Positions 4,565-5,373 of a stretch of 13,532 nt of DNA are shown piece by piece. Within the stretch, counting starts at the first letter, position 1; each line of letters starts with the position of its first letter. This DNA comes from a virus (taxonomy: Duplodnaviria; Heunggongvirae; Uroviricota; Caudoviricetes), in IMG/VR virus record IMGVR_UViG_2778261085_000011, positions 1-13,532 of that record, one strand, 5' to 3'. The position numbers and the translations under genes are program-made. The notes below the pieces were generated by a model that had not been told where the DNA came from, searched no databases, and saw nothing but the letters and a program-made list of their open reading frames with translations.

Positions 4565-4852
4565 TCACTGGTTGTTGTTCGTCTGCTTCGGATAGTTCCG
4601 CCAGACAGATTTACCTGCGTCTTCCATCCACATTCCCGCATGAGTACGTTTTACAGCCTCTTTCAGTGCCCCGAAGTTATCCGCTATAACGGGTGGGCGT
4701 GCTGCCTTACGGATACATTCCGCGCGACGCTTTGCCGCCTGTTCGCGCTCCTTATCGGTGTTCACCAGTTGCATAACCTCAGCCCACCGCGCCGCCGCTC
4801 TCCGGTACAGCCATTTAGCCTCCAGTTCTTCCGCTTTGCTGTCGTGAATCAT
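4565..4852 (-). CDS. PerC-family transcriptional regulator-like protein (copy 2)
   Basis: MIHDSKAEELEAKWLYRRAAARWAEVM...; AAGGAG upstream of the ATG at 4852; start overlaps the stop of the upstream FinO-domain gene (translational coupling). Confidence 0.7.
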   Translation of the reverse strand: MIHDSKAEELEAKWLYRRAAARWAEVMQLVNTDKEREQAAKRRAECIRKAARPPVIADNFGALKEAVKRTHAGMWMEDAGKSVWRNYPKQTNNNQ

Positions 4853-5373
4853 GCGCCTGTCTTCTCCTTTGCTGTCCGGCGTTTACGCTTCTCATTCAGT
4901 GCCATCAGCCGCGTTTCTGCCTCCTGCTGTTCCTGTGGTGTCACTTCCCCACATGGCTGGCCTTTCAGGTCATAACGTGCACCACCAGCTATCAGGGCGC
5001 GGTAATAGCGCGGAGACTGCGCATAAGATGCCAGCGTCGCACGTAATGCCCCCGGCCCGAATGTCAGCCCCCTGGCGGCGATATCCTGCATCAGGTCGTC
5101 GAATATTCCCACCTTCAGCGGCTTTGGCGCTTCCCTGTTGAATAAGTCAGGCCACATCTCAGTGAGGCGGTTAACGCGCCTGCGGTTTTTGCGCTGGCGT
5201 TTGGTCATATGCCGCCACGGTGTCGCCCCAGTGGGCTTCTGCTGCGCTTTCTGGTTACCAGGTATCACTTTATGCGCCGATGTGGTTTTATCCTGCTGCT
5301 GTACCGCCTGCGTTGTTTTCTGTGGTGTGCCGTAAATGCCTTTCGGTTTTCGGTTAATGGTCAGCTTTGTCAT
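4849..5373 (-). CDS. ProQ/FinO-domain RNA-binding protein (RNA chaperone family)
   Basis: WPDLFNREAPKPLKVGIFDDLMQDIAARGL...LRATLASYAQSPRYYRALIAGGARYDLKGQPCGEVTPQEQQEAETRL aligns with the E. coli ProQ N-terminal FinO domain (PLKIGIFQDL...RVDLDGNPCGEL) as recalled; basic N-terminal extension. Confidence 0.8.
   Translation of the reverse strand: MTKLTINRKPKGIYGTPQKTTQAVQQQDKTTSAHKVIPGNQKAQQKPTGATPWRHMTKRQRKNRRRVNRLTEMWPDLFNREAPKPLKVGIFDDLMQDIAARGLTFGPGALRATLASYAQSPRYYRALIAGGARYDLKGQPCGEVTPQEQQEAETRLMALNEKRKRRTAKEKTGA

Follow-up and report, generated by a model that had tools for sequence, protein, structure and literature searches.

The closest described counterparts of the system considered here are FinO/FinP of F-like plasmids, FopA/Inc of the IncI plasmid pCol1B9 and ProQ of Escherichia coli and Salmonella. 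In both plasmid systems the FinO-domain protein and the RNA on which it acts share a replicon, and FopA helps an antisense RNA to control a replication initiator (PMC9977716). ProQ, on the other hand, is a global RNA binder, so that the rule from which the initial annotation of our locus started, namely that FinO-family proteins act on RNAs encoded nearby, holds for the plasmid pairs and not for ProQ. To our knowledge there is also no linkage between RocC and its RNA. The locus described here lies in 13,532 nucleotides of Caudoviricetes DNA (IMG/VR record IMGVR_UViG_2778261085_000011, positions 1 to 13,532; "the window" denotes this whole stretch) which, judged by its gene content, represents a phage-inducible chromosomal island (PICI) of the AlpA type from E. 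coli. It carries a gene for a FinO-domain RNA chaperone (4849-5373, minus strand) and, next to the activator gene alpA, a candidate small RNA on the plus strand, and the two had been proposed to be specific partners. The overall picture that emerges is one of a correctly annotated domain and a plausible but unlinked small RNA: the protein is a genuine member of the family, but, to judge from the related islands, it is inherited independently of the alpA-proximal RNA.

The assignment of the 174-residue product of 4849-5373 can be regarded as secure, as far as sequence comparison and structure prediction reach. Residues 64-168 match the Pfam ProQ/FINO family (PF04352) with an E-value of 2.9e-24; the score is 85.6 bits where the cut-off is 27, and the alignment takes in positions 5-108 of the 109 in the profile. 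Among structures in the PDB, the best match by sequence is the N-terminal domain of ProQ (5NB9, E 1.4e-12), in front of FinO (1DVO, 1e-11), NMB1681 and RocC. The AlphaFold model is predicted with a local distance difference test score (pLDDT) of 89-96 across the FinO domain (approximately residues 60-160), and a Foldseek search with this model gave 1DVO as the best match (E 8e-7, root-mean-square deviation 1.9 Å, 102 columns), and also matched RocC (7RGT, 7RGU), including its terminator-bound form, NMB1681 and Lpp1663. Residues K35, R58, Y70 and R80 of ProQ are important for RNA contact, as established by mutational work and by structures of RocC with RNA. In the island protein K87, R111, Y117, R122, Y123 and R133 align with ProQ K35, R58, Y64, R69, Y70 and R80, and across 25 homologues of 56-93% identity the RNA-contact positions show no variation or a conservation of at least 90%. 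The domain call of the initial annotation is thus borne out by the family profile, the fold match to 1DVO and RocC and the retained contact residues, and its statement that the island carries the gene is likewise supported. No functional study of a PICI-encoded FinO/ProQ protein was found in the literature examined.

In its layout the protein resembles FinO: a basic N-terminus predicted to be disordered (residues 1-50) precedes the FinO domain (58-145) and a long terminal helix (146-173), and 1DVO is the best structural match. It resembles ProQ in its best sequence match and in the conservation of R58, Y70 and R80. It was nevertheless rejected as a ProQ orthologue, since the linker and the Tudor-like C-terminal domain are absent and the chain stops at residue 174 after a single helix; unlike ProQ, it is a paralogue carried by islands and occurs in only about 22% of complete genomes. 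Of 5426 complete E. coli genomes, 1168 have DNA matches to its clade; all 1599 places are chromosomal and a single genome has up to 8 of them. The protein matches 318 clusters, mainly from Escherichia but in part also from Salmonella, Shigella and Citrobacter, whereas plasmid FinO is just about 35% identical to it across the domain and the phage records yielded few and distant relatives. In RefSeq such genes already bear the name "ProQ/FINO family protein". The gene is thus best described as an uncharacterised member of an annotated family, belonging, by these comparisons, to a chromosomal clade carried by phage satellites, and not, like FinO, by conjugative plasmids.

One may ask whether the alpA-proximal RNA is the partner of this protein. 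Related loci were collected by exact-protein look-ups and by two DNA-anchored scans of IMG/VR; genome scans with the single FinO protein returned nothing, and those with an alignment returned six loci, two of them relevant. Among the loci with room for both features, the RNA segment and the FinO gene occur together in 8, the segment alone in 30, the FinO gene alone in 34 and neither in 29, figures that come from a census of mixed anchors, with a terminator-anchored set enriched for the segment, and that show independence, not population frequencies. Both discordant classes are large and are drawn from several lineages. When 100-nt tiles of the window were scored for presence over 106 island-sized loci (31 with and 75 without FinO), the RNA segment was found in 10-11 of the former and in 44 of the latter, which corresponds to an odds ratio of 0.34-0.39. 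Moreover, the islands that host the commonest FinO allele (P0044, present in more than 4000 index blocks) do not have the segment: together with the L088 group they carry a deletion of about 95 nt that has taken away the promoter and body of the RNA as well as the 5′ arm of its terminator, T2. As seen in the L011-type islands, this deletion runs between two copies of a CCGGCAA repeat. The inheritance of the FinO gene is therefore independent of that of the alpA-proximal RNA, and such association as this sample shows is, if anything, a negative one. Because of this independence the alpA-proximal RNA is, on the evidence of the island comparison, not the dedicated partner of FinO, and the specific chaperone-RNA partnership of the initial annotation is not supported. 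The situation also departs from FinO/FinP in that the island protein and the antisense RNAs of the island are not co-inherited.

The position of the FinO gene provides a different kind of resemblance to the plasmid systems. The gene lies directly downstream of the SSB gene (5410-5835, minus strand; PF00436), from which it is separated by a spacer of 36 nt that includes a GGGGA Shine-Dalgarno sequence, and it is predicted to be co-transcribed with ssb. It is followed by a gene for a PerC-family regulator (4565-4852, minus strand; PF06069, E 8e-33), the ATG of which overlaps the FinO stop codon; this ATGA junction, read from the sequence, suggests translational coupling. An intrinsic terminator, GAAGCCGGAACACTCCGGCTTTTTTT, was recognised by eye about 80 nt past perC (4460-4485, minus strand; not in the list of the terminator search) and is likely to be the end of the leftward operon. 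FinO and PerC make up a portable cassette of two genes and stand last in this operon, which comprises alpA, a leader open reading frame (ORF), icd and the replication genes. Because of this distal position, the FinO protein should be made only after the operon has been switched on. As in FinO/FinP, the gene for the chaperone stands at the far end of an operon opposed by antisense RNAs, and, as in FopA/Inc, a FinO-domain protein of a mobile element is encoded near replication functions. Unlike in FopA/Inc, no antisense RNA was found here against the RepA-type helicase or the iteron origin.

The antisense RNAs that oppose the operon include one of about 78 nt with two stem-loops, predicted in two copies on the plus strand. 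The first (9685-9762) has an extended −10 of its own, TGgTATGAT, at 9669-9677, and its 5′ end lies exactly opposite the minus-strand Shine-Dalgarno sequence and ATG of the leader ORF, GAGGTAGCTATG (ATG 9684-9682); the second (10471-10547, repeat D2) lies opposite the minus-strand GAGGTAACGATTATG. Both copies are therefore placed opposite a ribosome-binding site, as expected of a FinOP-type antisense RNA. Homologues are present in 112 of 166 related loci, one of which is from Serratia, and all 54 distinct variants share the fold, for which RNAalifold gives 25 pairs, nine of them with compensatory double changes. The sequences of the first stem are nearly invariant, while the loop that it carries is hypervariable. 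In its size, in the conservation of its stems as against the hypervariability of its loop and in its place opposite a ribosome-binding site, the RNA is reminiscent of FinP and traJ; unlike in FinP, the target is a leader ORF that leads into icd and the replication genes, and not a transfer activator. The architecture is also that of SymR/SymE, with an RNA of about 77 nt, an extended −10 and a 5′ end opposite the Shine-Dalgarno sequence and start codon of the gene on the opposite strand, which in some islands is a cell-division inhibitor operon. Membership of the Rfam family SymR (RF01809) was nevertheless rejected, as the scores of 35.9 and 34.5 bits, the latter that of the first copy, are far under the gathering score of 61, and the resemblance is architectural only. 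The RNA appears to represent an undescribed family and is, on mechanism, a better candidate for a FinO substrate than the alpA-proximal RNA.

For the latter, the predicted transcript of about 75 nt (11472-11545, plus strand), derived from a promoter and a terminator, consists of a variable, U-rich 5′ part followed by T2. Its extended −10, TGATATAAT (11457-11465), is the sole perfect TGNTATAAT in the window and is kept in 36 of 37 homologous variants, which were drawn from islands with three different right-hand flanks. The coordinates given by the initial annotation hold up, those of this element exactly, and none of the 37 variants departs from its first eight bases, TGATATAA, the longest invariant run in a region (11420-11545) where 55% of the columns vary. 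T2 was found by the terminator search as a stem (11511-11538) with a T-run behind it. Across 25 distinct variants its cells are paired in 94.7% of cases, one C:G pair is replaced by A:U, three variants have a hairpin with G and C swapped, and its G-U wobbles would become A-C mismatches on the minus strand. Because the stem is kept by compensatory changes and the wobbles are specific to the plus strand, T2 is interpreted as a plus-strand terminator under selection. The additional hairpin that had been noticed at 11487-11512 does form in the minimum-energy fold of the window, but its key pairs are lost in about half of the variants (81.6% paired) and it is not a conserved feature. The general geometry of the earlier proposal, a plus-strand RNA of roughly 70 nt ending convergently just 3′ of alpA, agrees with the predicted transcript. 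Its suggested role as a control point for alpA itself does not: 25 nt would separate the end of the RNA from the alpA stop codon (11570), and the RNA could pair only with transcripts that read through just past that codon, being antisense in this window to codons 3-27 of an ORF with its ATG at 11551. Since there is no overlap with alpA, any effect of the RNA is expected to fall downstream of that gene. Rfam contains no family that matches the RNA, and in the literature examined no small RNA was reported for the related O157 island OI-51. Two further features were observed in its vicinity. A direct repeat, TCCGGCAA...GGCGCTT, flanks the candidate segment at 11424-11448 and 11519-11542. Further upstream, a 46-nt block, CTGACACATTGCCCACCAGCCGCAAATGTGGCATTGTTGGTGATGC (11309-11354), recurs by itself in many E. 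coli genomes with an identity of about 98%, underlies there ORFs annotated as Ash, BRO-N or Icd-like, and has a hairpin in which a G-U pair fits the plus strand only; the block may mark a mosaic boundary or be an RNA element.

It is considered slightly better than an even chance, from these patterns of conservation, that an independent RNA of about 75 nt is made at this site. The competing explanation is that no such RNA exists and that T2 forms, with the terminator T1 (11388-11413, plus strand), a tandem that shields alpA from a convergent transcription unit. This plus-strand unit begins with a 100-residue ORF related to YlcI/YnfO (10685-10987), a position that in relatives is held by a YlcI/YnfO-family gene, and continues with orf65. 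T1 lies downstream of orf65, upstream of the candidate promoter and about 100 nt from T2, and shows a compensatory change of its own (CC/GG to CG/CG in L001 and L011); TGATATAAT would then be conserved merely together with the 235-nt module in which it resides; most E. coli genomes with this module have it at 95-99% identity. The −35 is poor or absent, and a lone perfect extended −10 is within chance expectation (at least one match in 70 of 200 shuffles, or 35%). However, TGATATAA stands out as the longest invariant run, with variable columns on either side, T1 by itself is already strong, and the segment acts as a separate unit: the deletion of the L011 type removes it, and L038 retains just its 3′ part behind a different upstream sequence. 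Taken together, an arrangement of terminators without an RNA seems possible, though we hold it to be unlikely.

How could the protein and the RNAs of the island act together? In the EcCICFT073 model, induction depends on AlpA, which switches on its own promoter and the genes downstream (PMC6092414). We propose that the plus-strand antisense RNAs block ribosome loading at the starts of leader ORFs and would thereby keep down the read-through that reaches icd and the replication genes from the AlpA-activated promoter. Where it is present, FinO may serve as an accessory helper of the terminator-bearing antisense RNAs of the island as a group, that is, of the two-stem-loop RNA opposite the ribosome-binding site of the leader ORF, of an isrK-like RNA (described below) and of the alpA-proximal RNA, by stabilising them or by speeding their pairing. 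Because FinO is made from the very operon that these RNAs oppose, the outcome would be a negative feedback on satellite induction in the style of FinOP, as FinO does for FinP, and islands without FinO could rely on the ProQ of the host. The whole of this account, with a real FinO chaperone, small antisense RNAs and FinO as an accessory helper with feedback, is given a probability of about 0.45 from the sequence comparisons. The feedback step on its own is at best doubtful, and it is rather improbable that phage satellites of enterobacteria run a FinOP-like circuit in which the two-stem-loop and alpA-proximal RNAs, together with an operon-encoded FinO or else with host ProQ, limit replication.

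Several observations weigh against the helper model. FinO co-occurs with no candidate RNA in particular, and any target within the island is therefore a putative one. The two-stem-loop RNA occurs both with and without FinO, and when its hairpin types were compared by eye FinO was seen alongside all four main types, with no association. A partnership with C4 or isrK was rejected, as four FinO-bearing islands have no Rfam match to them even at E ≤ 1; tiles of these RNAs are present in 1 of 31 islands with FinO and in 5-6 of 75 without it, and are thus rare in both. The alpA-proximal RNA would lie opposite the interior of an ORF, and not its start, in two of the three flank types, and the chance expectation for its extended −10, given above, counts in the same direction. 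Finally, the only partner with which FinO is co-inherited is its PerC allele, which equally suggests a role towards the host or a helper phage.

This last point supports a view in which FinO and PerC constitute an accessory cassette directed at RNAs of the host or the helper phage, for instance by competing with ProQ or extending its action, or by acting with PerC on virulence or helper genes, with no part in the control of island RNAs. The adjacent PerC allele was found in 25 of the 31 islands with FinO and in 2-8 of the 75 without it; the other strong positive tile associations with FinO are those of the small ORF after icd (9001-9100) and of the 3′ end of orf65 (11151-11250). The cassette is optional and moves among replication backgrounds. 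The pair occurs behind three different replication modules, following a D5-type primase in the L088-like islands, whereas the commonest FinO allele is preceded by DUF927 and SSB genes and followed by a different ORF; in islands without FinO, such as those of the O157 OI-51 type, PerC comes directly after SSB. PerC homologues of PICIs were also found to affect the expression of LEE, the virulence island known as the locus of enterocyte effacement (PMC11773190). On the other side, the gene resides within the replication operon and not among the distal accessory genes, and the characterised FinO proteins of mobile elements, FinO and FopA, target RNAs of their own element (PMC9977716). A cassette of this kind is a reading that we take seriously and yet consider less than likely.

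The pairing originally put forward, in which FinO and an RNA of about 70 nt (11470-11545) would be a dedicated chaperone and small RNA that control alpA and thereby island induction, has to be judged very improbable. Both features are real and stand in one island, and the FinO family recognises U-tailed terminator hairpins (PMC9977716), of which T2 is one. Against this are set the independent or negative association described above, the finding of the commonest FinO allele in islands with the segment deleted and the absence of overlap between the RNA and alpA. Targets in trans were also considered, but among 18 island gene starts nothing stands out above shuffled sequences (best duplex −28.4, compared with a mean of −26.9 for the best duplex in each shuffle).

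The isrK-like RNA named in the helper model belongs to a complete immunity cassette of the P1/P4 type at 9336-9589 on the minus strand. Behind a promoter-like TATGAT (near 9591-9586, minus strand), an isrK-like RNA, the equivalent of the seqA-type target of P4, is predicted at 9500-9576 (minus strand; RF01394, 80 bits against a gathering score of 50) with a terminator at 9522-9504, and is followed by a C4-type antisense immunity RNA at 9391-9478 (minus strand; RF01695, 76.4 bits against 45). The C4 loops have their matches, TTGGCGT and TAACGAAG, at two places, one within isrK and the other just ahead of the start codon of the Icd-like ORF; in the second pair of targets TTGGCGT is at 9386 and TAACGAAG, at 9355, overlaps the Shine-Dalgarno sequence of icd (ATG 9336). 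An overlapping ORF of 178 codons (9148-9684, minus strand) belongs to the Phage_ASH/Ash family (PF10554, E 7.8e-16). The two RNAs above their gathering scores, the two-site complementarity and the Ash-family ORF are shared with c4-icd-ant of P1, CI/seqA of P4 and IsrK of Gifsy-1, and such immunity RNAs have already been reported in PICIs (PMC10111431). In Salmonella, IsrK is among the prophage small RNAs associated with ProQ (PMC5391140), and in having an isrK homologue the window offers a parallel to ProQ. The cassette of the window is unlinked to FinO, for which it provides background only.

Across the same region a frame of 805 codons is open on the minus strand (9148-11565); it starts 5 nt after the alpA stop codon and ends at that of icd, and its last 178 codons are the Ash-family stretch at 9148-9684. 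It counts one stop, compared with 41-49 in the other two minus-strand frames, is antisense to the plus-strand ORFs and also crosses AT-rich spacers. In 112 distinct loci the median length of the stop-free span over the conserved block is 1160 nt; the best plus-strand frame reaches a median of 201 nt. That the 235-nt module with TGATATAAT and T2 is conserved for a protein encoded on the minus strand, such as a long ORF of the Bro network or an Icd-like one, is very unlikely: the frame is open across the module, the Prokaryotic Genome Annotation Pipeline annotates long Icd-like ORFs there and most insertions and deletions keep the frame, but variable columns are spread evenly over the codon positions (30/73, 30/73 and 26/74; p = 0.8), the T1 and T2 stems are kept by compensatory changes with wobbles that fit the plus strand alone, Pfam matches of the translation are confined to the Ash region, and an open frame and plus-strand RNA elements are able to coexist. 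By this lack of three-base periodicity minus-strand coding was rejected as the cause of the conservation of the module, although the open frame itself is real. The analysis suggests that the frame may be selected for translatability, perhaps against Rho-dependent termination as in P4, and not for a protein. In P4, translation across the immunity region reportedly controls transcription termination.

The silencing of Gram-negative PICIs and the limits on their AlpA-driven induction are an unsettled question on which these results bear. The 2018 description left open whether a repressor exists in these elements, and uncontrolled satellite replication was shown to be toxic (PMC6092414). A FinO chaperone inside the replication operons of satellites in about one fifth of complete E. 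coli genomes may constitute one layer of control by RNA, and conserved antisense RNAs between alpA and the replication genes may constitute a further one. If the chaperone does act on these RNAs, the logic of plasmid FinOP would extend to phage satellites and would offer a point of access to satellite induction and to the toxicity of unchecked replication. If host or helper RNAs are targeted instead, together with PerC, the cassette would bear on the regulation of virulence by islands such as OI-51.

The remaining gene content is that of a Gram-negative AlpA-type PICI. An integrase gene (int, 12291-13532), a small ORF after it (11947-12189), alpA (11570-11776; PF05930, E 4.5e-8), a 2.4-kb zone between alpA and the end of icd (9148-11565), a DUF4222 gene, a RepA/AAA_25 helicase gene (6807-8213), an ORF of 267 amino acids and the SSB gene follow one another on the minus strand. 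The set of int, alpA, an own replicon with origin, a size of about 10-15 kb and packaging-redirection genes was found, the evidence for the last coming in part from relatives that carry terS or capsid genes, and there are no virion structural or lysis genes in the window. Close E. coli relatives are inserted between tRNA-Pro/yejM and yejO and have a small terminase subunit, while a relative in O157:H7 adjoins roxA and has capsid genes; as the comparison of related loci indicates, the islands are strongly mosaic. Direct repeats of CTCCCCACTTTT units on either side of the 3′ end of the helicase gene (6597-6641 and 6765-6809) are probably the iteron origin of replication of the island.

A strong minus-strand terminator, AATAGCGGCCACTTGCGGTCGCTATT followed by a T-run, is located at 11917-11942, between the small ORF after int and alpA. 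Because of it, alpA probably has its own promoter within 11777-11916, which fits the reported autoregulation by AlpA. In the FinO-bearing relative L088 the Rfam int-alpA motif (RF02996, 45.5 bits) is found at 11672-11739, shortly after int; this motif is without a match in the window.

The left end of the window is accessory and contains, besides the PerC gene next to FinO, a second PerC-family gene (1660-2031), a duplicated ORF of 98 amino acids, a Nu1 fragment and a SocA/Panacea gene. The two copies of the 98-residue ORF (2519-2731 and 3763-3975) are 84% identical in DNA, and we take the product to be possibly RgdR, the regulator of OI-51. The ORF at 2877-3179 (minus strand, 100 amino acids) covers just positions 25-95 of the profile of the small terminase Nu1 (E 1.7e-30); it represents a shortened terminase or else a protein by which a cos-type PICI redirects packaging. 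At the left edge (1-513, minus strand) there is an antitoxin-like gene with a SocA/Panacea domain (PF13274, E 2e-18), whose toxin partner would fall beyond the window. A short tandem repeat of GCCAGCCA-type units occupies approximately 1480-1540 in an otherwise non-coding stretch and reads as GWLAGWLAGWLAGWL and QPASQPASQPAS in the translations of opposite-strand ORFs.

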